Source of the DNA: Balanoglossus misakiensis
Taxonomy: Eukaryota > Animalia > Hemichordata
Assembly (NCBI GenBank): GCA_040954595.2
Contig: CM082596.2
Coordinates: 3,145,039-3,209,038 of the forward strand
Direction of reading: 5' to 3'
Length of the DNA: 64,000 bases
Notes under the pieces: model-generated
Databases searched by the model: none
What the model was told of the DNA's origin: nothing
Seen by the model: the letters and a program-made list of their open reading frames with translations, nothing else
Shown here: positions 26,901-63,127 of the stretch, piece after piece
Numbering within the stretch: the first letter of the stretch is position 1
Layout: every line of letters begins with the position of its first letter
Program-made: the position numbers and the translations under genes

Positions 26901-27036
26901 TCACCTATGATTCATACATACAACGTATCTAAAGGTCAAATTTCTCTTTTTTTCATACAGGACTTAGAGGCACATCAGGTCTTAATGTAATCTGAACCGA
27001 AGAAGAAGAAAAAAAGCTCATCCGAGAAGAGTCGCC

Positions 27037-29253
27037 ATGGAGACGAACACTGCCAATCAAGCGAGTAATAAGTCAACTGGGAGTAATGAGGAAATGAAGA
27101 TCTCTGTGGGACGTGAGGAATTGAAACAGACCGTGTGTCTGCTGGCCTGCAGTCTCGGCGAGAGTGAAGTCAACAAAAAAGATGAAGCCATACTTGACGC
27201 TATTCACAGACTTAATCGTATTATAACTCAGGGAGACAAAATGATTCAGTTTGCTTCACCGTCCCAGCCGGGGCCTTCACCTCAAGAGAGCGACGGGCCG
27301 AAGCCGGAGACCGACGTCCCAACGGACAGTCCGATGAGCGACATGACAGCCGACGAGTTGTCAGGGCAACTGCAGAATCCCGCCCGTCCTGGGGTCACTA
27401 TGGTAACCAAAAACGGAGAGATAATGGAGGAGATGCTTCTGGAATGCTATAATGGATCGGACGACACCGACTTGGAGGACTATTATGGGGTACAACCTGA
27501 GAGTCGGGAGAGTCTGACGGCGCAACAGAGCAAGCTGTCACACAGCATCAACTTGCCACCGACTATGAGTAACGGCATCGGATTGACAAGGGGAATGGTG
27601 AGCGGGATCATGCATCCCCTCAAGATGTCCAGCCTGTCACGGAGGAAACACGAGAGACAGACTTTCACGTGTTACAAGTGCAAGGAGAGGATTGTCTGCG
27701 TGACAAACTTTGAGAAGCACATGATGGAGGCTCACAACATCGGAAAGCCCTGGGAGTGTCGCTTCTGTCCCGGTAGGCGCTTCCACCGACTCATTCTGCT
27801 GGAGCACCACTACAACACCATGCACAAGAACAATGGGGAGGGGCGTCGCAAGTACACCCAGAGGCAGTTCATTTGCGACGTCTGCCACGAGGTCGTCACG
27901 TACGTGTCCAAGTTCGAGGCCCACATGCTGGAGAAGCACGGCGTACGGAAGCCGTGGAGGTGCGATCAGTGCGTGAACTACGCGGCCGCCACCTACCACC
28001 TCTACATGTGGCACGTCCAACAGTACCACCCGAACATCACCAAGCACCACCTGGAGATCAGCACCGTGGTGAACAACACCGTCAACATCAACAGTACTGG
28101 ACCTCAGAGCCTGGTCGCCGCCGCCCCCGTGCTGGTCCCGCAGCGTCCCACCCTCCCCGTCACCCTGCCGGCCAACCAGCCGCGCAGTGTCGAAAGTGAA
28201 GCCAAGAACACCGAAGAAGCCGTGATGAAGAGTGCAGACAACATGCCTGGCAGTGCATCGTTGGAAACAGTTTCCGGAGAAGAAAAGGGGTCAGAGATCA
28301 AAGATGCTAAAGTCGTGCTTGCGGAGCCAGTGCTGCTTGCAGCCTCAGTGGCTCAACCACAGGTTCCTCAGGATGAGGAAAAGAATGACGGCGAAGAAGA
28401 TGAAGAAGAAGACGAAGAAGATGAGGGTGAAGGCGAACTGATGATTGCTGAAGATAAAGAGATGGATTTTGCAGACCCAGAGAGACCAGATGATGAGATG
28501 CCCATGATGAAAACCGAGGCAACAGAGACTTCCATGCCACAGAGTCAGAGTCTTGAAAAGATTGAACTGAATGAATGCAGTCCGCAAAACCTGGTTGTCA
28601 AACGGGAACCCAACTGGGAGGATGAAGCCAGCGAGGACTCTGGTTGCCAGGGGGAGGAAAATAACCCCGGCGACGGGGCTAATGGCAACCACGCGGTGCC
28701 GAGAAGAAGCTCGGTGGAGCTGGAGATGGAGGACAGTCAAGACGAGAACCGGATGGCGTTCATGCCGAACTACCCGCGGAAGTACACCATACGGCGGTTC
28801 ATCTGTGAACTGTGCGGCGTGGAGATCCGACACACGGCCAAGTACGAGCGTCACATGTTCGAGATGCACAACGTCACCATGCCCTACAAGTGTAACAAGT
28901 GCTCAGGGAAACGCTTCATGAGGCTCATCCAGCTGCAGGTGCACGAGGACAAGATGCACAGCCACAAACCGGTGGAGACGCGCCGCAAGTGGACGCAGCG
29001 CCAGTTCCAGTGCCCCATCTGCCGCGAGAAGATCACCTACGTGGCCAAGTACCAGCAGCACATGATCCTGGAGCACGGCGTCATGCGCATGTTCGACTGT
29101 CGCGTCTGCGGCCACGCCATGGGACACTATCACCAGTACCAGGATCACATGAGAACATATCATCCCAACGCCAGCGTCCGTCACTACTCGGAGACAGAGT
29201 CGCTCACTAACAGCGGCAGTGCTACGGGTCAAAATAGCGACGATGGCACTTAA
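27037..29253 (+). CDS. C2H2 zinc-finger protein, 738 aa, 8 fingers in two clusters, single coding exon
   Basis: Long ORF with Kozak context gccATGG, downstream of the acceptor at 26960. Eight CxxC...HxxxxH motifs (e.g. FTCYKC...FEKHMMEAH, WECRFC...LEHHYNTMH, FICDVC...EAHMLEKH, FQCPIC...QQHMILEH) separated by an acidic low-complexity linker. Confidence 0.93.
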   Translation: METNTANQASNKSTGSNEEMKISVGREELKQTVCLLACSLGESEVNKKDEAILDAIHRLNRIITQGDKMIQFASPSQPGPSPQESDGPKPETDVPTDSPMSDMTADELSGQLQNPARPGVTMVTKNGEIMEEMLLECYNGSDDTDLEDYYGVQPESRESLTAQQSKLSHSINLPPTMSNGIGLTRGMVSGIMHPLKMSSLSRRKHERQTFTCYKCKERIVCVTNFEKHMMEAHNIGKPWECRFCPGRRFHRLILLEHHYNTMHKNNGEGRRKYTQRQFICDVCHEVVTYVSKFEAHMLEKHGVRKPWRCDQCVNYAAATYHLYMWHVQQYHPNITKHHLEISTVVNNTVNINSTGPQSLVAAAPVLVPQRPTLPVTLPANQPRSVESEAKNTEEAVMKSADNMPGSASLETVSGEEKGSEIKDAKVVLAEPVLLAASVAQPQVPQDEEKNDGEEDEEEDEEDEGEGELMIAEDKEMDFADPERPDDEMPMMKTEATETSMPQSQSLEKIELNECSPQNLVVKREPNWEDEASEDSGCQGEENNPGDGANGNHAVPRRSSVELEMEDSQDENRMAFMPNYPRKYTIRRFICELCGVEIRHTAKYERHMFEMHNVTMPYKCNKCSGKRFMRLIQLQVHEDKMHSHKPVETRRKWTQRQFQCPICREKITYVAKYQQHMILEHGVMRMFDCRVCGHAMGHYHQYQDHMRTYHPNASVRHYSETESLTNSGSATGQNSDDGT

Positions 29254-32200: not shown

Positions 32201-35200
32201 GATTCATAAAACACACAACCATAGCATAGGAGATGATAAATTTAGATATAAAAAACATTACATTGCTCTGACGAAAGTAAGAAAATTTTATCTTAATTTT
32301 CCACCCAGTTGTCTGGTGTCTCAATTCAAGAGATATTTTAAATGTGTTTTCTGTTGTGATAATAGCTTTGCGAACAAAATGGTATCGTAGTCAGATAGCG
32401 TTGTTAATGAGCACAGTTTACAGCCACATAAATCTTGCCCTGTTGCCATGGCAGCAAGTGCAGTATCTTTGTGCGTGGGTTAATGGTTGTGTTAACTGTA
32501 TGTGGAAAGTCTTGAGGAAAAGAAGTTGTCTTATGCTGCAACATGATTTAGATTTGGGGCATGCCAACCCCTGTTGTAATGATTTAGAGCAGATGAATTT
32601 TGCAGAGCACCTTTGAAGAAAATCAGTCATCCATATTTCTTCCGGCTAGGATATTAAAATGGTTCAAACAAATTGCAGAATAGAAATTCTATAAATACAT
32701 GACATAAGGTCATGTTCTTTGCTGGATAGATACAATTGCCATTTTTCATGAAATGAACCTGTTTTCACCCATCGCACATACATACTGTGCTTGCTGTCTC
32801 TCACATTGAAATAAAAAAATAATAATAAAAAAACACCCTGAATGTACAGTTAATTAGTAACCATTGTCTTTGCCATCAAGTTGATGTATTTATTTAATTA
32901 CTGAGTGTAATGTAATTGATGTTGGCAGTATATATGTTATTGTACAAAACACAACTAAGTTATTGAAAAATTTAATAGATATAGAACCAAGAGTCTGTTA
33001 TTGTCAAATTTTAATTTACATTTTGTACTAGTGCCATGTATTTTAACAATATTTATAACTCAATTTATACTTATAGTGGTTGGACTATTTATTTGATATT
33101 TATATGGTTTCTTCAATGTTTTAGGACCATTTATTCTGTCTCACTTCATATATATACTGGTACATAACCAAGAATGCCATATGTAAAGCTGCATTGACTG
33201 TATACAGTACATACTTGAGTTTGCTTTGTGTAATCTTTCAAAAGCGTTTTTAAGGTCCTTATTTCAGTGATGCATAGAATGATCTGTGCGCATCTTCCAT
33301 GAACCTTTGTGTGGATTCCAAGCCTGTGGGATTGTGTACTTTTCCGAGTGGCATGCTTCTTCTCACTTCAGTGGGAAAGAAATCATGCGGAAAAATCGCT
33401 GGAGTTAGGTGATGTGTACACGCGAGCAGTCTGGATCGAGGGCATGGTGAACTTGTCAAACATTCTGATTTCTTGCATGATTGATGGCCGTAGGAAATGA
33501 AAGTGGCCGTAGTGACTTTTAAATTGGAAAGAGTTAGTGGCGTGGAACGAATTTTGTTTTCCATCAAGGGAGGATGATGGCAATCGAAGCTTCAGAGGCA
33601 CAATATTCGATTAGAAAACAGAAAGTAGGTGGCCACTGCAACAGGCAATGTATATGATTGTGCTTGACTTGTTAGAACTGTTTCACCACCCTCTTTTGGT
33701 CTCTGGTTTGAAGTTTAGAACTGGGCCTCTCAGATCATTCGGATGCCTTCTTAGAATTTAGCAAGACATGGCTTGGAACTCCAAAGGTTCATGAGAAGTC
33801 TAACTTTGCAGATAAAGACAGGAAAGCTTAGTTTTATTCCCAGTGTAATGTACAGAATGCCATGGCAGTTTTGGGCTGTTGCAACTATCTTTCACATACA
33901 TGTATCTGTGGTAAAAAAGCTCACTGTTTGTATTTATCTACCAGATGGGATTGATGAATGTCCACGAGATAAATTCAAGAAATCCTTAACCCCAGGAAAA
34001 AAATCATAAAATACTTTAACAGCACGTTTTTGTGAGAGTTCAACTATACTGGTTACCACTGTGCGTGGTATTTGCCAACTTTAAATCTCATTAATCAGAG
34101 ACAAGAGGTAAAACATACCCATAAATTGCACATCTCGAAACATTTTTGACTGCATATTTTGTATGATTTATAGTAATACAAAAATGTATCTGTTCAAGTT
34201 ATTCATGTGAAGTCTTAAACACATTTCCATGCAGACAGAACACTTTGAAATTTGAAGTTAAGTCTGGAAAATTCAGATTGACACCACTTGCTGTGATTTT
34301 CTTGCTTGTAATGTGAAAGATGATGCAACAGCCCAGATTCTGTGTCTCATTAAGTAACTTAGAGTAATACATGTGCCTATTGCAAAGTCAAGTCCATTAG
34401 ATTGCAATAGGCACATGTGAATACTCACAGAACGTGCATTCTTGTGAGCATTATCGCGTCTTTGAGAACACCACAAAATGTATACATTATGCTGCTTTTT
34501 AATGTTTTAAAATGAGTAGTACTTTCTGAGAACAACTCCTTCCACCAGTCGGAATCTTTTTACAAATTCTCTTGCGGTCTGATTGACAAAGCCCCTGGAC
34601 TCTGTGATTTTGATGCAATAACAGGTTCTGTTATTAGCAAAGTTTCATTTAAACAATGAATTGACTTTTTCACTTTAGCAGTATAGAATATAAGAATCTC
34701 CATGATATTCTCATCCCCCTCAGATATACAGTGTTCACCAAAGCAACCATGATAATTATTGCCTGAGCCACGATTATTATGTGGCTATGCAGCTCAGGTG
34801 CAGGGAGAAGTTTGCTTTGGAAGCCTTGATCCACAGATTACAAAAATAACCGTCCATCACAAGAAAAAGAATCAGTTAAAGTCAAAATTTCAGAGTATCG
34901 TCTCACTAGAATTGAGCATCATATTCTTCAGGGGCTCTTTATATTTTTTTTCTGTCCAGAGTGAGAAACAAGTTTGCAGGAATGGAAGTTTTGTCAAACA
35001 GATTATAGATGTTTTAGTAGTTCTAGAGCTTCCAACTATATTTATTTGATGTGTTTTGTAATTTGGTAACAAACGTATCATTTACCAGAATTGACTGCGA
35101 GATAATATTATACCAGATAATTCATGGGTCTTTCCATATCACTCTGTCATTTTGAACTGATTAGTCAAATCATCCTTTAATATTTGGAACAGTCTTTAAG

Positions 35201-35295
35201 TCCCTGTTTCATCACATCAGCCCAGAAAATCCTGACTGTATCCATTACATGTATTTTTTTTTAAGTTTAAAAGTTTTTCTCTGCTTCCAGATTAA

Positions 35296-35352
35296 GCATC
35301 GCCCTCTAGAGTCAAGTTCGTATTTGTAAGTGTGTCCTCTAGAGGGCGATGC
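35296..35352. repeat. 16-bp inverted repeat whose arms resemble CTCF core motifs
   Basis: gcatcgccctctagag (35296-35311) and ctctagagggcgatgc (35337-35352) are exact reverse complements. The CTCF resemblance is by eye only. Confidence 0.6.
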
Positions 35353-35616
35353 CATGTTCAGTGCATTCGCTTCCAAGTTTTGTTACCTTAATACATGAAG
35401 TTGAAATTTCCCAAACTCATACATGAAGATATTTTTATTCAGTTGTTTTCTTTTATGTTTGTATTTCACATCAGATTGATTTCCTGTCAACCGTCAGCAT
35501 GATGAATGTTGTGACTAGTTGATTGTGCAATTTCTACTTTCGATTACATGCATTGTCAAGTATGGATGGATTTTTATCAATAAACAAACTCAGTATACAC
35601 CACACAAAAATCTATT

Positions 35617-35998
35617 GAGGTTCTTACGTTTTACAGCCCAAAAAGTTAAAAAAATAATTGAGGTTCTAGCTTACAAAGTCATAGTTTTAGTTGATGCGAT
35701 GATAATTTGTCATTTTTAATTAACAGTTATCGTAATTTATCTCTCCGATATCATCAAGGTTCTTAAATACGATTTTATACGCGTGGCCGAGGTTCTTAAC
35801 AAAAGTCGAGGTTCTTACGTTTTACAGCCCAAAAAGTTTACAAAGTCTTAATTACCGAAAAATCGTGGTTCTTACGTTATTCAGCCTACAAAGTCAAAAA
35901 TTTTCAAGGTTCTAGCTTACAAAGTCATAGTTTTAGTCGATGCGATGATAATTTCCCATTATTAATTAACAGTTATCGTAATTTATCTCTCCGATATC
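35617..35998. repeat. Imperfect tandem duplication directly upstream of PTPN23
   Basis: gaggttcttacgttttacagcccaaaaagtt occurs at ~35617 and ~35808. A ~90-bp block aggttctagcttacaaagtcatag...ctccgatatc occurs at ~35661-35751 and ~35907-35998. Confidence 0.85.
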
Positions 35999-36000
35999 TC

Positions 36001-36032
<32 letters not shown>

Positions 36033-36094
36033 CCTTCGAACTCTCTCTACTTCACTCTCGAATTTTCTCACGGGAAGGTTACCCATGACGTCAT
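36001..36094 (+). promoter_or_regulatory. PTPN23 proximal promoter: (GAT)10 tract and full CRE palindrome
   Basis: (GAT)10 at 36001-36030; ATGACGTCAT at 36085-36094, about 25 bp upstream of the ATG. Confidence 0.5.
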
Positions 36095-36118
36095 TCCGCG
36101 AGACTTCAACCAACCAAG

Positions 36119-46023
<9,905 letters not shown>

Positions 46024-47716: not shown

Positions 47717-49652
47717 TTACTCCACAAATTCGTCAGGTTCATCGAAGTATAAATCATATCTCAAAGTCGATTGCAAAACTGGAGTCAGTTCAATCCCATG
47801 TCGGACTCCCAGTTGGGCTATTTTTCTTTTTATTTCTTCATTCGCCTTTGTGAGAATATCCAACATATGAAACCTGCCACACAATCTCTCCAGAGCCTGG
47901 ATAACTGTCCGCAAATAGCTAATTGAGCGCCCCCTAGAGCCAGTTTCACGTGGTAAGTGCGCATAGCCGAGGAGAAAATCAGCCTCGTTCGGGATGACGT
48001 CTATAGATGTCATCAGAGTTAGTAAGTCGTCATCTGCTGGTGTAACCGATGACGGTTCTCCGCGGGGCCCGTAATCGTCAATCGGACGTGTCTCTACCAG
48101 AAAGACCTTTGGTTTTCCGGCCAAATTTGTGGAATTCGCCTCGGCGAATATTTCCGTGAGATTCCGAAAACTGACGCCTACTCCATCCACGCCCATCAGT
48201 CGGCCAAAAGTTCCTTGGGAGAGGATGCATACGAGAAGGCAGTCGTGGAAAGAGTGGTCTTCGAGATTCAAGTTTCTCAACGAGCCGATCAGATCCAGCG
48301 ATGTTAAGTTTTTCATCACTCTGACGCTGAAGCCCATGCTGGAAAGTATACTGCGAATAATGCCTGAAATAAATGAAAACAATGTAATGTACAAAACACG
48401 AGTTACATCTGCCCCCTCTCCATCTACATCTCCACATGCGCATATTGAACAAAGTCTGCAAAAAGTCATGCTAAACGTATAATAGACTCGCAAAAATAAC
48501 GCGATTTCATACACAGAACACGCCTGCTTATTTAGAACATGTACATGAACTTTAATACACACTCAAACTGTGAGTACTTTAGGCCTTAGAGATGTACGTA
48601 GCCTGGGCCTCCGGGGATTGTGGAGTTAAAGGTCAATGACCTGACGTGACCTTACACCCCATAAACACCGTCACGTGATCACTTCTGCAGACATACACGT
48701 CCCTGCAAAGTTGCTTGTTTTCACATACAAGTCCGTGGTACTCACCTAATTCGGACCGGAAGACATCACCGCTAGACTTGGCATCAGATTCACTGTCATA
48801 TTCGTAATTATAGACTATCACAGCCGCGCCACACGGATGGCTGTCCATCGTATAGCACGGAACTTGGGAACCGGACTGCCATTCTCGCATCTCCATTCTC
48901 CCGTTCTTCGTCCGAGCTGAGTCGACCGTCCGTTCCAGTTTTTGGATCGCTGGAATCCCCTTCTGTATCGCGTCTTGATACTCCGTGATAAGCAAGTTCT
49001 CTTCGAAGTGGACATCTTTCAAGCCGCCCAAGTTACTGCACAGAGAAGCAGGTAAGATCCTCAAACGATTTTCTTCCACGCGAAGTTCTTCTAGCCCTTT
49101 CATTTCCCCCAGCGTGTACGGGAGCCAGTCCAACTTATTGTTGTTCAGCCACAATACCTTCAGGTTCTTCATTTTTCCAATTCCCCTCGGTAAACTGGTT
49201 AGTCCGTTGTTGCTCAGGAATAGCTTTTCCAGCCCTTGCATGTCGGTGCTCAGCAGGCTGTCGGGGAATTCTGTGAACTTGTTGTCTGATACGTCCAGGT
49301 AACGGAGTTTTGATAACCGACCTATCGAAGCTGGTAGCGTCTTCAGCCTATTGGTCCCCAAGTAAAGCCTCACCAGTTCCCCCAGTCCCGAAACGACGTC
49401 GGGAAATTCCTCAAAGTGATTGTTTTCCAAGAATAACCATCTCAGTTTGTCTAGTTTGGATACGTCACTGGGAAGTGATTTTAAGCGATTGACGTTCAAG
49501 TTCATCCACTGTAGTTCTGTCAGGGTGCACACCTGTAGTGGTAGGCTTGTGAGGTTACGGTAATTCAGATCCACGCGGAGATCGTACGCTTTTCCCCGGT
49601 AAGGGTTGATGTTCAGAGCCGTCAGTTCTCGCTCTATCTTAGCCTTGGTCAT
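47717..49652 (-). CDS. LRR-caspase fusion protein with a catalytically dead caspase-8-like domain, ~517 aa, 2 coding exons
   Basis: Exons 49652-48746 (donor G|GTGAGT) and 48363-47717 (acceptor atttcag) join in frame. The N-terminus has about 8-9 LxxLxLxxNxLxxLP repeats. The C-terminus has caspase motifs YTMDSHPCGAAVIVYN, MGFSVRVMKNLT, DCLLVCILSQG, LAGKPKVFLVETR, IPNEADFLLG and STLRYDLYF. A short upstream exon near 50010-50050 is possible. Confidence 0.9.
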
Positions 49653-50647
49653 CTTTGGGTCGGATCGAAGAGGAAGGGTGCAGTGAAATCGCGAGATCAA
49701 ATGCGACTAAAACATTCAATGAGAAATAACATTTGCGCTTTTAGTCTTTGTCAATCGGACACCTGTAGGAGCCTAAACTCGTGTACGTGCTCTGAATCAA
49801 CAAAGCATCTCTATTAGCCTATCGATTATTGCAGCGTTGTGGTCCATTCAAATTCGCGACGTCTTCTCAAACTATTCAAAATTCTTAACAATTGAACGAG
49901 TTCGTTTCTTTGCAGTTTCCCCACATTCATGGTGGTAACAGAAGGATTCTGTCTTGTAAATCTCTGTATTTCTCAAAAAAGCCCAACAATATCACAGACG
50001 GAAACGTACATTGAGAGTAGAGATACAGGTTTCAGTGATCATTCTCTGACAGACCCTACCTCTTTGCTTGCACGTTTATAAAATGGTGTCCCTCCCGATC
50101 AAAGCGGGAATCGTTGTTTTCAAGCACAGTATCTTTGTACGCGAGTTTCTTACTGTTCATCAGCATGCCATCTGTACGTTTCAGGGAGCGACTGTAATGA
50201 CTATTCCAGGAAAGAGACAGCGAGCAAACAATATGTATACGTAGCCATATCTACTTAAAAACCAAGGAGCGCATGCGTTTGAATATTGACAACTTTTAAT
50301 TCTGCTGAGGCATAGTTATGTAATAGGTCTAAAAGACTAAAGGGCTCCAACACTGACAGATCTGAGAAAATGAAATATCACATATTCAGTTCCTGTTGTA
50401 CTAAGGTCATTTTAGGAGAAGCGCTTCTGACTATGGTACCCCGTGACAGACGTAACATGTAAACTTTGCGTATTTAAAACGTCAGGCAACGTAAATAGAC
50501 TGTGCACGGCCTAATACATGTATTAGAACTGTATACTGTTTGGTGTCTTAATCTTGGTAAATACTAGTTCATTTAATTCTCCGTGTAAATGTGCGCGTCT
50601 CAACTTTCCGTTGCCAGGACAAACACCACTCCACTGTAAGTTCATGT

Positions 50648-52847
50648 TCATTTCCGCTTGAATCCTGAATGAGTGAGAGAAAATACCAAAAGTTTATATA
50701 ATTTTACTTTTGGTCACTACAGACAGGGTAAACTCGAGTTTTGATGACATGTTCATTGTTCTGTTTAATTATTTTAAAAAGAGATAAATGCTTAACTTAA
50801 ACAAAATTAATTTAACGCATTGTGTCTCGGACCCACCTCTGGCGGACGACGGCTGGAAGACGTACATTGCGTACAGGGTCATAAGGAAGTTGTCGTTCAT
50901 GTACGCCTGTATATGGTCCTTGTGGAGTGAAATTTGTTCTTCAGAGAGACAGATATCCTGGTTCATTAGGTCTTCCATCTTTCCCCACGCCTTGGGGAAA
51001 GTTTTCTCAGTGTAACTCGTGGGCCGCGGTTGGATGAGCGGCAAAACCCTGGCGTTTGAACTCAAAGTGATGCCAAGTTTTTCTGTAGGAAAATGAAGAT
51101 CATGAGATACTATAGATTTCTTGAAATTGTGCGCTAAGATGACACAAATTTACTGAAATGAAGATTTCCGGGTTTTCAGTCGTGATAACTGGTGAGCCGG
51201 CTTTTGTGCTGTTCGTATAAAAGCTCTTGGAAAAACATGGCCACCTATTTCACCCACAAAACTTCCGCCAACTTCTAGGCCAATAGACCAAAAATCGCCA
51301 ATCTCATGTGTTTCACTCTCGTATACCAATCCAATCTTAGAAACATGCCAACCCCCTACCCGTTTTCCCGGGTAAAAGTTTTTCCTCATAATTTGAGAAA
51401 CGTGTAGTATGATAACAATTATAATGTCAGTCTTTTTGACATCTGTCGAGCTAATCACTTTCGGTTATAAAATAACCAAAGTACACCCACCCAACTGCCG
51501 TGTCAAATGTATGCCTATCCTGTCCTCGTTATCGATCACCTTGGCAAAACAGTCCTCGCAGTGACAGAGGAGAATGACTCTGTCGAATTTTGGAAACCGG
51601 TTGAACCACAGCATCCGGGCTATTTTGACACAGTAAAGATTGAACATGTTGTCGACCCCGTAGCTTCTCAGCGTCTTGGCTTGGAGGGCGTCCTCCGCCG
51701 TATGCGACCCCGCCCCTTCGCAGAGTTGCAAGGTGGGGAACCCGTTGACGAAATACGTCTGGATGCTGGCGAGCTCGCTCTGTCTGCTGCTGTCTGCGGA
51801 AAATAAAGGCCTGGACACTTCCACGGTGAAGTGTCGATCCCACTGGATTACCCGGTTCGCCAGGAACGGGTTGCAGTGGAGATCTTCCTTCGCGTCACCT
51901 CTCTGTCCGATAACTAGGACGTTTGAGTCTCGCCCTGTCCGCAGCGTTCCCCACGGACTCGGTATCAGCGGCAATTTCATAAGATAGTCCTCAATACAGT
52001 CTACCTGGTCCGAGTTGAATTCTTCAAATACGGAAAATATCCGACGATCCTTGGCCAGTTTCAAGGCCCACTTATCTCCGAATTTCCACTGTTTTAGCCA
52101 AATGTCGGCGATGACCTTGTCTTTCATATGTCTGGATTTTCGGTCACCGTATATTACGATCAGTATTGAACCTGAAATATTAAATTTGTGGGTTAAAGGT
52201 CGTGTAGAGAGCAGTGGGAGACAGAGAACATTTTTATTTTAATTTTAATTTTAAGCAATCATCCTTCTATGACCACCAACTTAATATGCCCTGTCTTTGT
52301 CAGGCCCTTTGCACTTGCTTCGGGGAATGCAAAACAAGTTTTTCTGATTGCAGTAGGCAAATACGATAAATTACCAGAGCTCGATAGGTTTGGTATTTCC
52401 GTCATGGCGAGACAAGACGGAAGTAAAACGATGGATTTTCTTGTGGATGGGGCAAATGATTCGGCAGAAGTGTGACCAGACATTTTTTGTGTCTAATCTG
52501 CCTCTGGTTTGAATGACAGGGAGTATACCTTTTGGCTTGGTCGATGTCCGATGCAACATGTCTAGCTCCTGCCTGTGGTCGATACTTCTGTCACGTCTCT
52601 CGGGTCTCAGACAGACCCGGCTTTGCCTGGCGTCGATGACAACGACCGCTGTGGACGTGGCGTACCTGGCCAGCGTTGTTGCGCGCTGTTTCTCGTCCGC
52701 GGCTCGGAAGCTATCTACCGTTGTCATGCCGTTCAAGTTCTCGTTTCCTTCGACCACCGCTTCCAGCAAAGCTTTCACGTTTTCTTCGGCGGCTTTCTGG
52801 AAGGATTTCAGTTTCGCAAACACGAAAATTCGGTGTCTTTCCGCCAT
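50648..52847 (-). CDS. Uncharacterised protein, paralog A: TIR-like alpha/beta N-domain plus degenerate IFI44-like P-loop domain, ~420 aa, 4 exons
   Basis: Exons 52847-52529, 52171-51491, 51082-50837 and 50664-50648, with all phase-1 GT-AG introns at positions matching paralog B. It shares long motifs with B (VVVIDARQSRVCL, TSTKPKGSIL, LWFNRFPKFD, NARVLPL). The last exon (GFKRK*) is the least certain; read-through to 50769 is the alternative. Domain names are inference. Confidence 0.8.
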
Positions 52848-54037
52848 TCTTTGAGTGTGTACGTCTCTTCTACCCTCTAGCGTAGACCCTGGGTTTCTAC
52901 GTAGAACCCGGATCGTGTCACACACACACTCACTGTTCCAAGACGAACTGAAACCGTTTGCTTATTTTAGTCTGGTAACTAGTTGGACATTGAATTCCTG
53001 TCAAAGTTTACAGCACAAGCATATACGCATAAACGCTTTCTCTTGAAGAGCACATTAAATCATATATCGCCTTCTGTGACTTGTGTCATTAGAAAAAATT
53101 AATCAGGTACGTGCTGCCTCCCGTAACCATAGACATGACAGAATTAACATGCAGCTTTAGGCTGCCGGACAGATTCCAATAAATCATATGGAACAATAAT
53201 TGATCATTGGTTGATAACCATAACAGTTGTTTTTGGTATAGGCGCAAACAACGCCTTCTTATCTGCCAAGCGAAATAACTGCAAGGCACTTGAAACGCCG
53301 TTCATTTCTGTGTAACCATGCATGTATGTACATTTTCTGTAAGGAGAATCAGCTTTCTGTCAACGACACGATAAGAACATTTTATCATATTAATCATATA
53401 TTGACTCTTGCTGTAAATAATATTTTCGCAACCCGACCTTATTGATTGACATATTTCTATAGTAAACGTTCATTACGCTATCTGAAGGAAAACTTTCTTT
53501 CCGAGTCTACGAACTGCCTGTATGTCCGCCTGTAAAATAGAACCCCTATAGGGTGACATCTTCACCTCGGTTTACCGCATGAATAGGTTCAAGCCCCTGG
53601 GTCCATGCACACAATAAAGCAACCAGGTCAAAAAAGTAGTCGCTATACAGCTGACATATCTTTGCCCGTTAGAGAGAGCTATAGTTAATCGAAACATTAA
53701 AAACTTTGCTTTACAGTCAAGTAAAAAAGAAATACTTTGAAAATACACCTCGCTGAAACACCCCATGTCAGAAACCTATATCGGACCTTCTAGGTTACTT
53801 TAAAGATATCATATTTTTGACGTCACGAGATATTTTGGGCCAAGATACCAGTGGCAAATACAATTCCCGAGCATTTGGACTATGGACGATTACTGATAGT
53901 TTAACAATCACTGGGTAAATGTTGGCTGGAGTGGAACTTTGGTCGCATTAAGTGGCCTGCTTCTCGCACAAAAGGACTGTGTTTAGCTAAATATAACGTA
54001 TGGGTCAATTTTCCACTGCACCGCACCTTGATGATCG

Positions 54038-54047
54038 GGGGATTTCC
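54038..54047 (+). promoter_or_regulatory. Consensus NF-kB site GGGGATTTCC upstream of the IFI44-like ATG
   Basis: Exact GGGRNWYYCC match about 75 bp upstream of ATG 54122, in the divergent region between paralog A and the IFI44-like gene. It is a short motif and could be chance. Confidence 0.35.
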
Positions 54048-54121
54048 TTGTCTAATTCGAGGTGATTAGATCCTGTTCTATTCATGGTTAGACGCGGTTG
54101 CGGACTCGCGATATTTTAAAC

Positions 54122-56481
54122 ATGAGTCGTCACAGTGCTCCAGTGCTACCAGCGAAGATGAGCGAATCAGGGATATACGTGACGATGAGGGGGTTCCACG
54201 CAGCGGGTTCGGGACTGCCCATGTACGTGCGCTACGCCAGGGGCGACCCAGTTGCGATTCGCGTCGATTGCCACGAGGACGATACCATACACGACCTGGC
54301 CAAGAAGCTGATCCTCCGCTCGAAGGATTTCGGGCTGGACCTGGCCGGGATCAGGCTCAGGGAAGGCAACGTGGCCGTATACATACTCGGGAAAGACGGC
54401 GTCGTGCTCCCGGGGAGAGACAAGCTGTCGCCGAGGAAGCTTCTTAAAGAAGTACAAGAGTACGACTTGGAATTTGAAACAGGTGAGAATAGTGTTGTAT
54501 CATCATTACACGGACAGACACTTTATAAACATTTTACAGCAAAGCATTTCTGTGTTCAACATTTCACATATACTGGCCACTGACAAAAATCTGAGGGGGA
54601 GGGGCAAACATGACAAAACAAGTACAGTATGTCCGTTTATTCTTGTGCAAACTTTTCTGATACATACATACTGGTATGAACTGTAATTATTTCCGTGTGT
54701 GCGCACTGAAACCTATGCATCTCTTGCTGTTTACAGATTTATGCGATGTGGTCGTCACCCACGCCGAGACCAGCGCCGTCTTCCCGTGCATCAAGACAGA
54801 GACGTTCGGTGACCTGGCGCGGAAGATAGAGACCAGAATTGCGGCTTTCAACTTCCAGGAGACGTATTTGATTGAACTGAGGGGGCAGCTCAAGACGGGC
54901 AAGTTGAGAATTTCAGAATATTCCGCCGTTGGCCGCAAGAGTAAAGTGATCAGCCTGACAAGAAGGATCGGGGATGTGGGCGACAGGAAGTTTTCTTTCT
55001 TCGTAGAGCAACCGAAGAAAGCCATTACTTGTGGTAAGTTGGTCACCACCAGTTCGAATCAAAATGATCAGCCTGGATGCATTTGCGGGTGTCCAGAATG
55101 TAAAATAATGTCAACCCATTGAATTTCGGTCGGAAGATATTTATAGTGTCTTTATATAACTTGACAAAGGAAATACAAATAACTGAAAAAAAAATCTAAG
55201 TGAGGGGGCGAGTTAGTCTTGTTTCAACCGGTCACATAAGCCTTTAACCCCCTCCCCCAATAAATGACACGTCATTTACCGAAATTGCATTCTTTATTGC
55301 AGCTGATATCAAGGAAAACCTGTGTGGGCAAAACGTAGTTTTCTTTGGTCCCCCTGGCAACGGTAAATCATCGACGATAAACACATTTGCCAAGGTAAGC
55401 TACTAAGTATTTCCGCATATGATCTCAGAATTCGTCACCTTCGGTCGGACTTTTTAGCGACGCGTGGGGGCGCGCAACAGCAGACTCAGGGAAAACGTGA
55501 ATATGGTGTTGATATTGTATGGATCGTGTTGAAATACCATTATATGTTTATAATTGACGCCTTTGTCATATAGAAATATTCATATGGGAGATACTACATA
55601 CTGTATACTCTCGAGTCCATTAGCTGAAATTGGATAAATTCAATGCCTGTCTTGGCAGACTTTCCAGAAGTTGACGATATGTGAATTCTTCGAAATGTCA
55701 TGCCTCGTAATAATCCGATTTTTTGCCTTTCTGGCTTTGTTTTAGGCTTTAGGTGGAGTCTATCGCCCTCTGGCAAATACCTATCAATTACGCGGCCCTG
55801 GCACTAAAGTATTCAAACCGTACACATTCACAGTCGAGGAGAAATCGTTCTCTCTCTGCGACGTGCCCGGTGCGGCTTTCCAAACCAGTGACGATTATGA
55901 CCCCACCAAATTCATCCAAAGGATTCTCGACGGCAAACTGCCCGCCGAAAAGCCCCTGGACTACAAGCACAAGTTCTACAAGCGCGGTTTTGGAAAAGCC
56001 CATTGCATCGTGTACATCCACAAATGGGACGCAGAGTTGGACGAACTTCACAGGTTTTTAGTCGATGAGGCCGCTGTACGAGGTGAGATGTTTTAGGATA
56101 ATTTGGGGCTGTGTGGTTTTTATGCAAAACGCAAATTGAAATACGAAGACTTTTATCTAAGGATGAAAATGATTTCATGCCTCATCGTCTTTTTCCATAG
56201 GAAGCGGTATTCCAGTGGTTGTCATAGTGACTCATATCGACCTCGCCCCAGACGACCCCGACCTTATCGCCGAGAAATGCGATCAGCTGGCCGAGATCAT
56301 GGGTATTGACGTCGCAAATGTGTTCACCGTATCGAACTTTGACCACGAGGCATCACACGAAGACCAACTGAGGGATGCGCATGCTCTGCAGTTGCTCCAC
56401 AAGATCCTGGCGTCGGCGAAGTCTTTCTGTGACAGAGGAAAGGTCAAAGTGACCGCAAAGGTCAGAGCGGCCGATAAATGA
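54122..56481 (+). CDS. IFI44-like P-loop GTPase with two N-terminal ubiquitin-like domains, ~455 aa, 5 coding exons
   Basis: Exons 54122-54482, 54737-55033, 55303-55394, 55746-56082 and 56201-56481 join in frame. Motifs: G1 NVVFFGPPGNGKSSTINT, G2 GPGT, G3 LCDVPG, ILDGKLP, HCIVYI, G4 IPVVVIVTHID, and VFTVSNF...DAHALQLLHKIL, which together fit the IFI44/IFI44L pattern. AATAAA at 57024-57029. Confidence 0.85.
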
Positions 56482-58071
56482 CCCGCGTGCTGTCACCGTA
56501 GCGACAGCTGAAACAGATAGAGACTGACACCATATAGAAAAAGGGGTGTTTTCTACCTGGATGTGCTTACAGGTACCCGAGAACGAGTCTTGACCACTAC
56601 GCCCCCGGACTCGGTCAGTTCTCGGGTACCTCAGTATGGATGTGGTGATCACTTAGAACCCTTTTCCTAAATGTGTGGACATTGTACATTAACATTTTCA
56701 TTCATTTACAACACACGCATGGCGATTTTTTATCTATTGCAACAGGTTACACTAGGTCAGATACCACGTGATAAACTAGCAGAGCGAGATAATGATGGCC
56801 ACGAGTACTTTGACAAATAGTTCACTTAACAAGCAAACACGTTTGATTGATGGACTGTTGCATGTTATGACCTATTGCATGGGTCGTTCAATTCCATCCA
56901 GTACGGGTACACCTCGCTTTAGACCAATCAGTACTCGTAATCCTGTATTTTTGTACATAGCAGCTTTTACCAAAGAAGATAGACAGTACGGTATTTAAGA
57001 AACATTGATTTGCGGTATCCTTTAATAAAATGAGTTTTGCATCTGTCGTTTGTGTGGGGCTGACATGATTTGTACTGTTTGAACGGCCTGCAGGGACGTA
57101 TATTTTCCTGCATGTTGTTACGTCTGCGTCGATAAGTGTAGCACAGTCTCATATATCGTGTATCATATGCTGCTGCTGAGATATGTCCGTTATCATCATG
57201 TCCACGAGTTGCTTGGCAACTGGTCACGTGACAGTCGCAGTCTCCAGTCGAATCTCCCGGCGATGTCGTTTATTGACAAGATTCGATGAGTACATTGTCG
57301 GCTTCTCCCATAAAATTTATATTTCAACAGTAAAATGATAACATTTATGTTCAAAATACATGTACACGAATATGCATGCGTTAATGTCATGCGGCTGTTT
57401 TGCATTCCGGTACTTTGCGATGTAAAAACACCTGCAAAGCGAAACTGGGCAACAATATTGACATGCTTGATTAATTGGGTTAGTATGAAATAATTGAACC
57501 AAGCTTTTGTGCCATGGCCGGCCGTCTAATAAGAGAGAAACAAAAGACTATTGCTTTTGTTCAGTTTCACAAATTCCTAAATTACACAGAATAATCAGAC
57601 GCCGAGTTTTAGGCTCAATAAGACACACATATCTGGTCTTGGTTAACTGAATTATTTATTCGCCTTTCGGTTCACTGGTTCCATCTCATGCCTTCTTGGA
57701 AGACGCACGTTCATTGCTGCTGCCGCGCATCTGACAAACCTACGGTTGCCATGGACACATTTTCTTTGGAGTGATGCCAAAAGTGGTTAATACCAACACC
57801 GCACACGCTAAATTTTGTATTATTTAAATGACATACTGTATAGTAAAGTAAAGGGCAGCCACCATGCTATCCACAGTCGTGAAGGCACGCTGATATTTAT
57901 ATGCGCACTGTGGTCCATTTTTAGAGAGCGAAAATAGAACGAGTTCGCATTCTTTACGGTGGCTGCTGATCTAAATTTAAAACAGGGTCATTATCACACG
58001 CTGTAAAACAAAGAAAACATACAGAAAAGTCCACAATTATTGTCATGATGATAATATTCACAGAATGACCA

Positions 58072-58779
58072 TCATTTCCCGCTGAGGTACTGCTTTATCG
58101 CGGCCGCTCCGTTCCTACACACATCCATCGGGGGGTTCTCCATCGGGTTGCCGTCCACCATGATCTTCTTCAGCTTGGGGAGTTTCGTTATGGCGCTCGG
58201 CAGCTCGGAGATGTTGTTGTCCTGCGCCCAGATCTCTTCCAGTTGCGGCATGCTGGCGATGCAGTCGGGAAGGGCCGTCAGCTGGTTGTCGTTCACGACC
58301 AAGACCTTGAGGCACCGCAGGCTGGCGAGGTTCTCCGGCAGCTCCGTGAGTTTGTTGTGGCGCATGTAAAGCTCCTCGATTTCGGAGCCGCTCAGCGCCT
58401 CCGGGAATTCCTCGAATTCGTTGCTGTCCAGCCAGAGCTCACGGAGGTTCAGCAAACGGGAGATGTTCCGCGGCAGTGACCTCAGCCGGTTTCCCCGCAG
58501 GTCCAACACCCTCAGCTCGCGCAACTCACAGACGACTTCTGGTATCTCCTCCAGACCGTTCTCGCTGAACGTGAGGCTCTCCAGCCGCTTGAGATGCACG
58601 ACATCATTCGGCACGTCCACAATGTTGTTTCCCTTTAAACTGAGGCCCATTAAATTCCTCTGTCCGTAGACTGCCTTCGGGATGACTGTGAGCCGCGAGT
58701 TGTCCAGGTCGACACACACGCCGAGGTCTCCCTGGTTGTTGATGAACGGCTCAAAGAACAGCTTGTGTCCATCAGACAT
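58072..58779 (-). CDS. Stand-alone intracellular leucine-rich-repeat protein, 235 aa, intronless CDS
   Basis: ORF with about 8 LRRs (e.g. LRVLDLRGNRLRSLP, LRELWLDSNEFEEFP, LKVLVVNDNQLTALP) and C-cap GNPMENPPMDVCRNGAAAIKQYL. GC-rich codon usage; no signal peptide or TM segment is apparent. Confidence 0.92.
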   Translation of the reverse strand: MSDGHKLFFEPFINNQGDLGVCVDLDNSRLTVIPKAVYGQRNLMGLSLKGNNIVDVPNDVVHLKRLESLTFSENGLEEIPEVVCELRELRVLDLRGNRLRSLPRNISRLLNLRELWLDSNEFEEFPEALSGSEIEELYMRHNKLTELPENLASLRCLKVLVVNDNQLTALPDCIASMPQLEEIWAQDNNISELPSAITKLPKLKKIMVDGNPMENPPMDVCRNGAAAIKQYLSGK

Positions 58780-59124
58780 TTTGAGCTGATTTTCTCCTCC
58801 AAGCCCGTTTTATGATTGATAGAGCGCGTTGTTCTGGCTCTCTCCAGCACCTGTTGGTGACGATGTGCGCACAAAATAATAACGAGCCTCTTGCTTGAAG
58901 TTGAAACCAACCGATGTCCTGGATGCGATGATGTATTCCTGACAAGTTGGGTCTTCTCGGAGATCCACGTTGCAAATGCTGTTCTCGCACGTCTTATCAG
59001 CGCTCAAATTATCGCGTCACCAAAATCAGCATAAAATTGTGTCCCGTACTCTAGAAGGTGTGGTCATGATATAAAAGTCATTATTTTGTGCTCCGACATC
59101 TCCACTCTTTAAAAAAAAACGCCT

Positions 59125-59170
59125 GATATATATCCCAACACGATGTCACTTTCACTTGTCGGTTTCACGC
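59125..59170 (-). promoter_or_regulatory. IRF-element-like AAGTGAAAGTG next to a TATA-like tract upstream of the LRR gene
   Basis: Plus-strand cactttcactt at 59147-59157, a further GAAACC half-site at ~59161-59166, and gatatatatc at ~59125-59134. Confidence 0.35.
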
Positions 59171-61002
59171 GCAGTCTCACAAACGTCTAAATGCTGCACA
59201 CAAATTCGGTTTCAACCCCAGCGCTTGAACTTTGCGACACAGACAGATAATATCAGGCAGAGTCCGACACTGCTGACACATTTATGGGATTGATGATGTG
59301 TAACACGCGGAGGCCTCGCAAACTGACCCCAACCCGATCAGAGTTATGTTAATATGTCAGCCAACAAACGCTAAACCGTTAATTCAATGACCTCCTAATG
59401 GATGACCGAGCACGTATACGTGTTAATGGTCCAATGGAATTGTAGGAAATGAAATTTGTAAATGTGGTCCGTTCTGACAAAATTGACGGCTGTGATTCTA
59501 ATATTTCGAGAAGTTCATGGTGCCATTTTAATCATTTCCCCATCAAATCGAAAATAAACATACTCGATGTGAAAGGGACTCAAATGATACGGGCACGAAC
59601 GTATTACATGTACACCTTCTATGAAACCGCGATTTTCCAATTATTAAATGTTTGAAAACGACAGTGTAATCTCACTAATGAATATTTTAGTAAGTATTCG
59701 TGCATGTACTTATACCGGCCTCAGTATTACTCTATTACACTACTTACTAGACCTGATGGTATCTCGACAGGTATGGTTACACGCTCCTGCGCGGGGAACA
59801 TGCGCATTGTATGATGTCAGAAAGCCACAACATATTATGGAGTCGTTTACATGTTTCCATAGAAACGTACAGCAAATTAATGATGGAAGATGTAGGAGCA
59901 AAGTGAGTATTTCTTTTACGACACATTAATTTAGTTTTATGACATGAGTAATCTCATTCGGAACCAAGTCGTTTTTCTGCGGATATTTTTAATTTTTATA
60001 TCCCATGGCATGACGAAAAATTCTTACGAGATTCACGAGCTTTTCCGCTTAGTTTTTATATCAGTGCAGGACGTTATTATATATTAGCTGGAATATGTAG
60101 CCAAAACATCTGTACCACCAGAATGCGGAAACTTGTAAATTGTGGATAGTCGTCCATCGATGTGAATTGAATTGTGATTGCAGTCGTTTCGCATATACCT
60201 GTACAACATAAATAAGCTGTCAGTAATACATGTAACGGCCTCGTTGATCCATGTATGTTCATGATGTTATACCTGTATCTTGCAGTAATTAGTTATTCAA
60301 TTATTCATGTGACGTAATAGTACTTACCTTCAATTGGTTGATCTTAATTATATGCAAACCACCTGGAAGTTTCATTTGACCAATGAACACAAGCTAATCT
60401 GGCACTATGATGTAGTTGCTGATATAAAAGGACATTGTGCATAAAATTGGTCAGTTCACCTCTGTAGCCAGACCGGCCACACACGTTGGAACTGACATGT
60501 ATTTGTTCCATTTCAGGTTAGTTTCCTTGTACCTTATTATCTGTTGCTTGAAGCTTTGTATTTTGGTGCATTCTACCGACTCATTTCAGCACAAGTAATT
60601 GGTGTCTTGAACTTGCGTCAATTTTCCAATTGTATTTCTGTATTTTTCACTTGCATGAATTTTGGTGTATTCTGTTGGAGGTGAACTCCCATACATGTGT
60701 GTAATTTAGCAGTTCACCTCTGTAGCCAGACCGGCATAACATACTGTATATGGCAATAACCTCAATAATGTTAGAAGTGAATGATGACACCACGATATGC
60801 AGTCTATTCCCTTCAATGCAAGTCTGATCTTTCTTCAATGTTTGTCGCTGATGGCGCCTCATGTGCCTGTGTACGCAGGGGTTGCATAGGGCCGTTTGTT
60901 GATAGACATGTTAACGATGGCCAATCTTCGGTCATCTCGGGACGATGACAATAGCGCCACCGTATAAACCACAGTTAACTTCTTACAAAGCCGGACTCCG
61001 AA

Positions 61003-63127
61003 ATGGGGGATGTGCAATGCGTACTTGTTTTCGCTAAGCTCGTTTCTTTTCAAAAAGCGGCAAAACGAGTTCGTTCTCTCCTCGAACAAGTGGTCGAGGA
61101 TGACGACCAACTGAACGGAAAGGTGATTGTCAAGAAATATAAAGGCGGAGACAAGTGGCCCACCGATGACTTCGCTACCACCACGGTCGTCGTCGTAATC
61201 GACGCCAGACAAAGTCGTGTTTGTCTCGTCCAATCGAGGCGAGACAGCAGTATTGACCACAGGGCAGAATTGGACATGCTTTATAAGACATCCACAAAAC
61301 CAAAAGGTAAATGTTTAAATACACAGATATTTTTATAGCAAAGTTTTCGATCTGCAGCTTTATTATCTGGCCAGATAGCCCAAACTTTTGATTGCGCGTG
61401 TGCTGCAATTTCTAAATTATTTTAAGTGCAGTGTTTGTATGTATTCGATCTCGAAGGGTGTTGCTATCAACGACCTTTGATTTTATGTCATCGCCCCTTT
61501 GCTTTTTCTGTTGTACTAGCAGCGTGCTTTTAGTATTAACTGTTGATTTTGAAAAATACAACACAGCTTTTTATTTTATTTTATTTTATTTTTATCAAAG
61601 GTTCAATTTTGGTTGTTATATACGGAGATAGCCAATCTGAAAATATGAGTGACGACAAGCTGGTCGCCGACAAGTGGATTCAAACTTGGAAATTCAATGA
61701 CAAAGTGGCGCAGACTCTCGTTCAGCGCAGTAGACTATTTTCCATATCGGACAATTTTAACGCAAAACAGGTGGCAGTCATTGTGGACTATTTGTACAAG
61801 TTACCACTGATTCCGATTCATGCCCCGGACTCCAACGTTCTGGTCATCGGAAAGAGAGACCCGCTGACGGAAGAAGCTGCAGAACTCCGCCGCGACCCGT
61901 TTCTCACCGATCACATCGTTCAGCACGAGCGTCAGTTTACCGTCCAGGAATCGAAGTACATCTCGCTCGTTCACGGACAATGTGACGACGCAAACGGCCA
62001 CCTGAGAACATACTTCGTCGACGACCTCGCAACGCCGAAGGTCTGCGATCTACCTGACGGACAAGAGATTAATTTGCTCACCACTAAAGACTTTAAGGAC
62101 TACGGAATTGATAACATGATGGATTTTCACATTGTCCAGGTGCCTCGTGTGCTCTGGTTCAACCGATTTCCAAAATTCGACCAAGTTCTACTGGTACCTC
62201 ACTGTGGCGTCTGTTTCTGTAGACTGACCGCGGAACAAGATCGCATTGGACAGCACCTCAAGTCAGCACTAAGTAGGTATAACAAACGTCCCGAATGTTG
62301 TAACTTTGAAAATTAAGAATGTTATTAGCCATAAACTTTTATCCACGATTAACCCGAAGATGACGAATTCTTAAAGGAAGCTCGTGCTTTTTTATAGCCG
62401 AGTACAGTACAAAAATAGGCCATAGGCTAAAGTAGACTTCTAAGTCGCCCTACTTATCAATGTTTATTGAAATAATTCATTCAGCTATTATCGTTAGCCA
62501 TTAGGCCATCACTAACACGATTGTCAATTTATTCTCAGGTAAACTTGGCATTCAGCTGAGCCCCAACGCCAGGGTGCTACCATTAATGACAACTGGCTGT
62601 CAAGAGCCCTCAGTCAGAACGAAGGCTTTGGCATTTGTAGACGACGCAATTGAAAAGGATGCAAATCTGACTGACGAGTCCAAAACCGCTCTCAAAAGAC
62701 AACTTGGGTGTTTTAGCGAGGACGACAGTTTTATCTGGGACTTGTATACGATGCATATGTACAACTTCCAGCCAGGTCAGTTGAATATTCATCGGCTTTC
62801 ATATACGAAACACTAGTTTTTTCAAACCCGACATGTCCGAATACGAGAGACTTGAACAAAGTACTCTGTACACGTCTGCATTGGTAGAAACCTTTAATCC
62901 TTGCAAAATTGTTAACATTTTTCTCTGACCAACTCTTTAAACTGCTGAGAAACGTCAACCGCAAAGTGTTTTTCATTATGAGACGCTGGTAATTTTGTCT
63001 TTCAGGACTAAAACCAAAAGAGCATCGACTGGACACTCAATCAGCCTCTACAGATCAAAAGGGACATGGACAGAGAAAAGAAGAATCAAATCTGCACAGT
63101 GAAGATTGTTCACTACCTATGGCATAG
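61003..63127 (+). CDS. Uncharacterised protein, paralog B: TIR-like alpha/beta N-domain plus degenerate IFI44-like P-loop domain, ~444 aa, 4 exons
   Basis: Exons 61003-61306, 61601-62272, 62539-62775 and 63006-63127, with phase-1 GT-AG introns and continuous frame. AATAAA at 63175-63180. Colinear with paralog A. Confidence 0.83.

Follow-up and report, generated by a model that had tools for sequence, protein, structure and literature searches.

Whether genes of different structural families lying side by side in an animal genome act in a common defence, or share only their position, is the question raised by a block of five genes at positions 47717..63127 of a 64,000-nucleotide stretch of the genome of the hemichordate Balanoglossus misakiensis (the whole stretch is referred to below as the window). 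The initial annotation regarded this block as one co-regulated innate-immune module, composed of an LRR-pseudocaspase, two TIR-like/pseudo-GTPase paralogs, an IFI44-like GTPase with two ubiquitin-like domains, and a stand-alone LRR protein. In this work, we compare the gene models, domains, relatives and base composition of the block with those expected of such a module and of its alternatives.

Lineage-specific expansions of immune genes with shuffled architectures are known in sessile marine invertebrates, hemichordates included, as described in passages of PMC8195603, and in hemichordates, a deuterostome phylum, the response to dsRNA involves many genes that model species have no orthologs of, according to the available text of PMC10210618. 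The block resembles the former expansions, TRADD-N proteins among them, in its shuffled LRR, caspase, GTPase and ubiquitin modules, in the tandem expansion of one of its families, and in its occurrence in hemichordates; it differs in that its three architectures and the family of the two paralogs (A and B) do not appear in the available text of PMC8195603. No description of the block’s fusion architectures or of the A/B family was found in the open literature, subscription journals lying outside this search, and the genome paper of the related species Ptychodera flava contains no passage that mentions caspase, GTPase or leucine.

Layout and gene models of the block

The genes are arranged in the order LRR-pseudocaspase (minus strand), A (minus), the IFI44-like GTPase, here called G (plus), stand-alone LRR (minus) and B (plus). 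Spliced models with open frames confirmed that all five are intact and that their order, strands and span are those initially given. The models contain 2, 4, 5, 1 and 4 exons, respectively, and encode 517, about 450, 455, 234 and about 444 amino acids, with no internal stop in any of the five frames; all 11 introns are GT-AG, the models having been built from splice sites. Gaps between neighbouring genes measure 0.6-2.2 kb. The two head-to-head pairs, A with G and the stand-alone LRR with B, were likewise recovered, with ATG-to-ATG gaps of 1274 and 2223 bases. Upstream of the block lie a zinc-finger gene and a BRO1-ALIX-phosphatase gene (PTPN23-like, at approximately 35-46 kb), the latter convergent with the LRR-pseudocaspase gene.

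A tblastn search with three P. flava orthologs recovered all modelled exons of the LRR-pseudocaspase and G genes, as well as the first three exons of A and of B. It gave no ortholog support for the last exon of either gene (50255-50361 in A, 63006-63127 in B), and the P. flava model of A stops a few residues past the exon-3 donor. The orthologs, together with a pN much lower than pS, rule out pseudogenes or chance open reading frames. Also ruled out is the origin of the block by inverted duplication of a single LRR-plus-A unit, since the relative orientations differ and the LRRs are only 31% alike.

A dead caspase, an IFI44-like GTPase and a lone LRR protein

The LRR-pseudocaspase gene (47717..49652, minus strand; exons 49652-48746 and 48363-47717) encodes eight LRR motifs followed by a caspase-8-like domain. 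Its naming proved correct: Pfam detects both LRR and Peptidase_C14 (E 2.5e-19, 70.3 bits against a Pfam cut-off of 21.4), and the catalytic dyad is substituted, His to Gln and Cys to Thr, in the window protein and in its P. flava ortholog (XP_070570358.1, 515 aa, 72% identical over 517 columns) alike, while a bird caspase-8 row in the same alignment retains both residues. The protein thus lacks the dyad of an active caspase. A search with the caspase exon returned 33 homologs longer than 376 aa among 1725 candidates, headed by the P. flava LRR-caspase (75% identical); the remaining 32 are caspase-8-like proteins, 27-36% identical, and the P. flava ortholog is the only one of the 33 to carry LRRs. 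No DED was found in exon 1, where only LRR families matched, or in the ortholog’s Pfam list. A caspase domain that is 75% conserved, with its dyad lost in two species, indicates a maintained dead enzyme. The closest analogue is cFLIP-L, which has no catalytic activity: the block protein’s caspase domain, nearest to caspase-8 (up to 35% identity), is without the catalytic dyad, but LRRs stand where cFLIP has tandem DEDs. The block caspase was probably inactivated independently and is probably not a cFLIP ortholog.

Gene G (54122..56481, plus strand; exons 54122-54482, 54737-55033, 55303-55394, 55746-56082 and 56201-56481) encodes two N-terminal domains of one exon each, followed by a GTPase domain with Walker A, DxxG and TxxD motifs in its sequence. 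Its designation as IFI44-like is borne out by Pfam, by these motifs and by Atlas leads, in which IFI44-named clusters stand at feature rank 3 (0.89) and make up 5 of the 10 structure rows (TM by query 0.46-0.51). The protein can therefore be assigned an IFI44-type GTPase domain, placed by cluster leads and motifs rather than by alignment to a named IFI44; a PDB sequence search gave matches at the Walker-A level only. Among 345 candidates from an exon-4 search, the one longer homolog is the P. flava ortholog (XP_070570359.1, 464 aa, 64% identical over the full length). The proposed pair of ubiquitin-like domains holds in part. Domain 2 (residues 117-218 of the ortholog) is predicted by modelling to adopt a beta-grasp fold with a ubiquitin-like match; domain 1 (residues 15-118) is unfolded in a low-confidence single-sequence model of the ortholog (pLDDT 40) and may be ubiquitin-like by virtue of a 28-column similarity to domain 2 (E 0.02). 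Many IFI44 clusters have an N-terminal TLDc or Ig domain; G instead has its two one-exon domains, at least one of them apparently ubiquitin-like, and the ortholog gave no Pfam match to TLD/TLDc at E 0.05. In the passages available, an IFI44 homolog is described as poly(I:C)-induced in two cnidarians (PMC13319465), and human IFI44 as either restricting RSV or damping IFN signalling (PMC7459546, PMC6712396), with the GTP-binding region dispensable for RSV restriction by IFI44/IFI44L (PMC7459546).

The stand-alone LRR gene (58072..58779, minus strand) also corresponds to its first description, being a single exon whose 234-residue product matches Pfam LRR. The protein shares 31% identity with the LRR region of the P. 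flava LRR-caspase, and its exact sequence is absent from the protein collection searched.

Paralogs A and B and their enteropneust family

Genes A (50255..52847, minus strand; exons 52847-52529, 52171-51491, 51082-50837 and an uncertain last exon 50361-50255) and B (61003..63127, plus strand; exons 61003-61306, 61601-62272, 62539-62775 and an uncertain last exon 63006-63127) have intron positions in common, all of phase 1. They are 44% identical in exon 2, with pN 0.34 against a saturated pS of 0.75 over 397 codons. The P. flava ortholog of A (XP_070571198.1) is 64% identical to A and 45% identical to B. An ortholog of B itself was found neither by an exon-2 profile search nor by an alignment-based one; the latter yielded only 6 proteins, 1 of them new, so this absence is weak evidence. 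The exon-2 profile retrieved 37 clusters among 1.84 billion representatives, and the 30 whose names were looked up are all enteropneust: 17 from P. flava, 12 from Glandiceps talaboti and 1 from Saccoglossus kowalevskii, where LOC100379020 is a relative. In a quick tree of 37 rows, built after leaving out three fragments, B is sister to A plus A’s ortholog (SH-aLRT 94), which places the A/B split before the species split; other supports around A and B are 97 and, with P0036, 98. Most of the family resides elsewhere, since 13 of the 17 named P. flava members are on another chromosome of 40.3 Mb, 8 of these within 37 consecutive accessions (XP_070533631-667), and 11 of the 12 Glandiceps members share one 24.6-Mb chromosome. 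A and B together form an outlying branch of this family, which is kept mostly in its own tandem array on another chromosome and is thus not tied to the partners of A and B in the block.

The initial description of these paralogs as a TIR-like domain plus a pseudo-GTPase was not supported as stated. The model of A’s ortholog (pLDDT 87, pTM 0.88) predicts two alpha/beta domains and a helical tail. Domain 1 resembles GTPase folds best: of the 50 structures ranked highest for it, 48 are by their titles P-loop NTPase domains, with ROC as the best match, tied with other G domains, while the single TIR stands at rank 47 with an rmsd of 5.5. For domain 2 no structural match appears in the lists, whose entries are taken up by domain 1. 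Foldseek of the A model against the PDB had a best E of 1e-3 at TM 0.12, with GTPases among the leads, and nothing under E 0.001 against a viral library; a PDB sequence search with the A/B profile returned one match, at E 0.26. The Walker A motif GxxxxGK[ST] occurs in 0 of 40 family rows, so that, judging by sequence, A and B are not expected to be active P-loop GTPases. The same lack of any Walker A, together with the lack of a detectable sequence link to G, separates them from IRG proteins (GMS/GKS) and GIMAPs. LRR genes adjoining genes whose domain 1 matches ROC best recall Roco proteins (LRRK1/2 and bacterial Roco); in the block, however, the genes are separate, without P-loop or COR match, and ROC is tied with other G domains.

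An alternative view of domain 1, compatible with any role of the block as a whole, is that it is a divergent enzyme of the TIR superfamily (TIR/SEFIR/nucleoside-deoxyribosyltransferase-like), which would cleave NAD+ or a nucleotide via Glu98 and make A and B signal-producing or cell-killing effectors. We regard this as doubtful. Domain 1 does resemble TIR/SEFIR in being an alpha/beta fold with parallel strands and in having a conserved Glu on the helix that follows strand 3; this residue, Glu98, is kept in 37 of 39 rows, its equivalence to the TIR catalytic Glu being suggested by secondary structure only. Yet approximately 20 residues separate strand 3 from the Glu helix in A and B, the structural match is weaker than that to GTPases, and no TIR was matched in Pfam, PADLOC or NCBIfam, PADLOC giving 3 weak single-member matches among 39. 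Profile comparisons were uninformative, and the fold check left the domain naming unconfirmed. With hhalign, domain 1 against 29 bacterial TIR_2 sequences reached a probability of 0.7%, a value also attained in 1 of the 25 shuffles, and G against EngA, taken as positive control, itself gave just 2-3%; under the same weak control, domain 2 had no profile match to G or EngA, and comparisons of the A/B domains with G, caspase, the 29 TIR_2, 28 EngA-type and 12 NDT-like sequences produced nothing credible. An NDT-like match, although scoring above all shuffles, was rejected as out of register, aligning the last strand-helix unit with the first. None of the tools used tied A and B to an immune family.

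Linkage, base composition and the nature of the block

Linkage in related genomes, proposed initially as a check, is seen in P. flava for three of the genes at the level of the chromosome. The orthologs of the LRR-pseudocaspase, G and A all lie on one contig of 44,037,996 bases and retain the same architectures at 64-72% protein identity; adjacency is read from accession numbers, and B contributes no ortholog to the comparison. Since the LRR-pseudocaspase and G orthologs bear consecutive RefSeq accessions (XP_070570358.1 and XP_070570359.1), they appear to be near neighbours. The accession of the A ortholog is 840 away, and, accession order being only loosely positional, such a gap says little.

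The block (47717..63127) is not depleted in CpG (o/e 1.02) and adjoins, across a sharp border, the depleted body of the PTPN23-like gene, a housekeeping neighbour (0.48). Tile medians are 1.01 and 0.46 (31 against 22 tiles of 500 bases; Mann-Whitney p 1.3e-7, the tiles not being independent), all five coding regions range from 0.94 to 1.13 against 0.41-0.64 for PTPN23 exons, and GpC o/e is about 1.0 in both. A high CpG o/e is expected wherever a gene escapes germ-line methylation and is not specific to immune genes. In oyster, according to the available text of PMC2996979, o/e is low in genes of DNA/RNA metabolism and the cell cycle and high in signalling and adhesion genes. By this pattern, the block genes are unlikely to be constitutive housekeeping genes, which does not in itself demonstrate immunity. 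In the A-G divergent intergenic region (52848..54121, 1274 bases), one NF-kB-consensus-like 10-mer lies at 54038-54047, about 75 bases before the ATG of G; such a site was reached by about 5% of 300 shuffles, an uncorrected p from one of 16 motif-region tests in the block. The window contains 4 such 10-mers, 3 of them in the block, where 2 fall in coding exons. Counts of ISRE, IRF-E and GAS did not pass p 0.05 in any of the four intergenic regions, and a control region had an IRF-E excess of its own (7 against 2.4).

We tentatively favour, with slightly less than even confidence, the view that the block is an old, lineage-specific and inducible cytosolic defence neighbourhood, whose members share regulation but act separately, without forming a single complex. 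The A-G pair, and perhaps the rest, would be turned on by an immune signal, for which NF-kB, acting via the site before G, is a candidate. G would then bind GTP and, in the manner of IFI44, either act as a restriction factor or apply a feedback brake, while its ubiquitin-like domains would provide docking or turnover modules. By analogy with cFLIP, the LRR-pseudocaspase may pair with an apical caspase and set a death threshold, the LRRs taking the place of the DEDs as recruitment module, and the lone LRR protein could be a binding or decoy subunit. Domain 1 of A and B, a GTPase-shaped sheet without P-loop, may bind or turn over a nucleotide-type ligand in its conserved polar pocket, and polar residues of this domain are indeed near-invariant across the family.

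It is rather unlikely, though a serious alternative, that the genes are passive neighbours, lineage-specific genes that collected next to PTPN23, where the DNA is dynamic and unmethylated, and remained linked by descent without shared regulation or function. The outlying position of the A/B clade away from its main array would fit such a history, as would the missing B ortholog, the low identity of the two LRR regions and the weak motif evidence, and short-range order may persist between related acorn worms without selection. Against it, all five genes resemble immune or death-signalling genes or belong to a fast-diversifying family; they are closely packed, with two divergent pairs and one sharply bordered CpG state, and three orthologs still share a chromosome despite their protein divergence. 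The integrated module originally envisaged, here revised, would place all products in one pathway in which LRRs sense, the pseudocaspase gates death, and A and B, as P-loop-less GTPase-fold partners, restrain G as GMS IRGs restrain GKS IRGs, the head-to-head LRR and B resembling a split Roco protein; we consider it improbable. Comparably improbable is a non-immune role in developmental or regenerative cell death, or in a stress response of a restricted tissue. Caspase regulators and LRR proteins are not specific to immunity, and the oyster data (PMC2996979) link high CpG o/e to signalling and adhesion genes as well, but dsRNA induction of IFI44 homologs is described from cnidarians to mammals in the passages available, and a family that expands in tandem and diverges fast, as A/B does, would be typical of conflict genes. 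The most far-reaching version, also improbable, is an animal defence island organised much like an operon and conserved among acorn worms, with an NF-kB-driven A-G pair, A and B as new nucleotide-processing enzymes (a TIR-like catalytic Glu on a sheet of GTPase shape) that are coupled to an IFI44 GTPase with two ubiquitin domains, and LRR sensors with an LRR-tethered dead caspase setting the death threshold. If true, animals would have in A and B a further class of immune effector, new to science, its paralogs numbering in the dozens and some of them anchored in the membrane.

The block offers three testable architectures: a dead caspase carrying LRRs and not DEDs, an IFI44-type GTPase in which apparently ubiquitin-like domains replace TLDc, and the A/B family, which is unnamed, has expanded and shows a conserved pocket. 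Co-induction and conservation of the block would make it an unusual example, for an animal, of an immune cluster drawn from several gene families; failing such evidence, it represents a further case of immune domain shuffling in invertebrates. The unnamed A/B family is the part most worth pursuing, and if its members are enzymes, they would constitute a new immune effector family.

Genes and repeats upstream of the five-gene block

Upstream of the block lies a PTPN23/HD-PTP-like gene (window about 35000-46023, + strand), which comprises BRO1, an ALIX V domain, a long proline-rich exon, and a phosphatase domain, and whose gene body is CpG-depleted. This gene and the LRR-pseudocaspase gene are convergent, with ~1.7 kb between the end of the former and the stop codon of the latter. 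A long, single-exon C2H2 zinc-finger ORF of 755 codons is located at 26986-29250 (+). No long ORF was found in window 1-26000, a region containing seven IRF-E-like motifs versus 2.4 expected (40 shuffles). Two long microsatellites, of trinucleotide and tetranucleotide types, were seen as low-complexity ORFs, one within a PTPN23-like intron (about 37600-37900) and the other at about 1700-1900.

Non-coding motifs within the block

STAT-consensus-like palindromes are present 550 bases upstream of the LRR-pseudocaspase ATG (50204-50212) and between the IFI44-like GTPase gene and the stand-alone LRR gene (57693-57701); their occurrence is no higher than chance. The region between the LRR gene and paralog B carries a 33-base direct repeat (60445-60477 and 60703-60735; copies 91% identical).

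The family of paralogs A and B

On the 40.3-Mb chromosome of Ptychodera flava, at least eight genes of the family fall among 37 consecutive accessions (XP_070533631-XP_070533667) and probably form a tandem array; the 24.6-Mb chromosome of Glandiceps talaboti likely carries a counterpart. In domain 2, a Cys (residue 261 of the P. flava ortholog of A) and a His-Cys-x-x-Cys motif (314-318), conserved in 30-34 of 35-37 rows, could constitute a metal site.

Some relatives, including P0048 and P0054, contain an LDL-receptor class A domain or else repeats of the Kazal type; these extra domains possibly stem from fused gene models. Since such domains occur in some members and 12 of 38 have a membrane-like segment at the C-terminus, these sequence features suggest that the family may be partly membrane-anchored.
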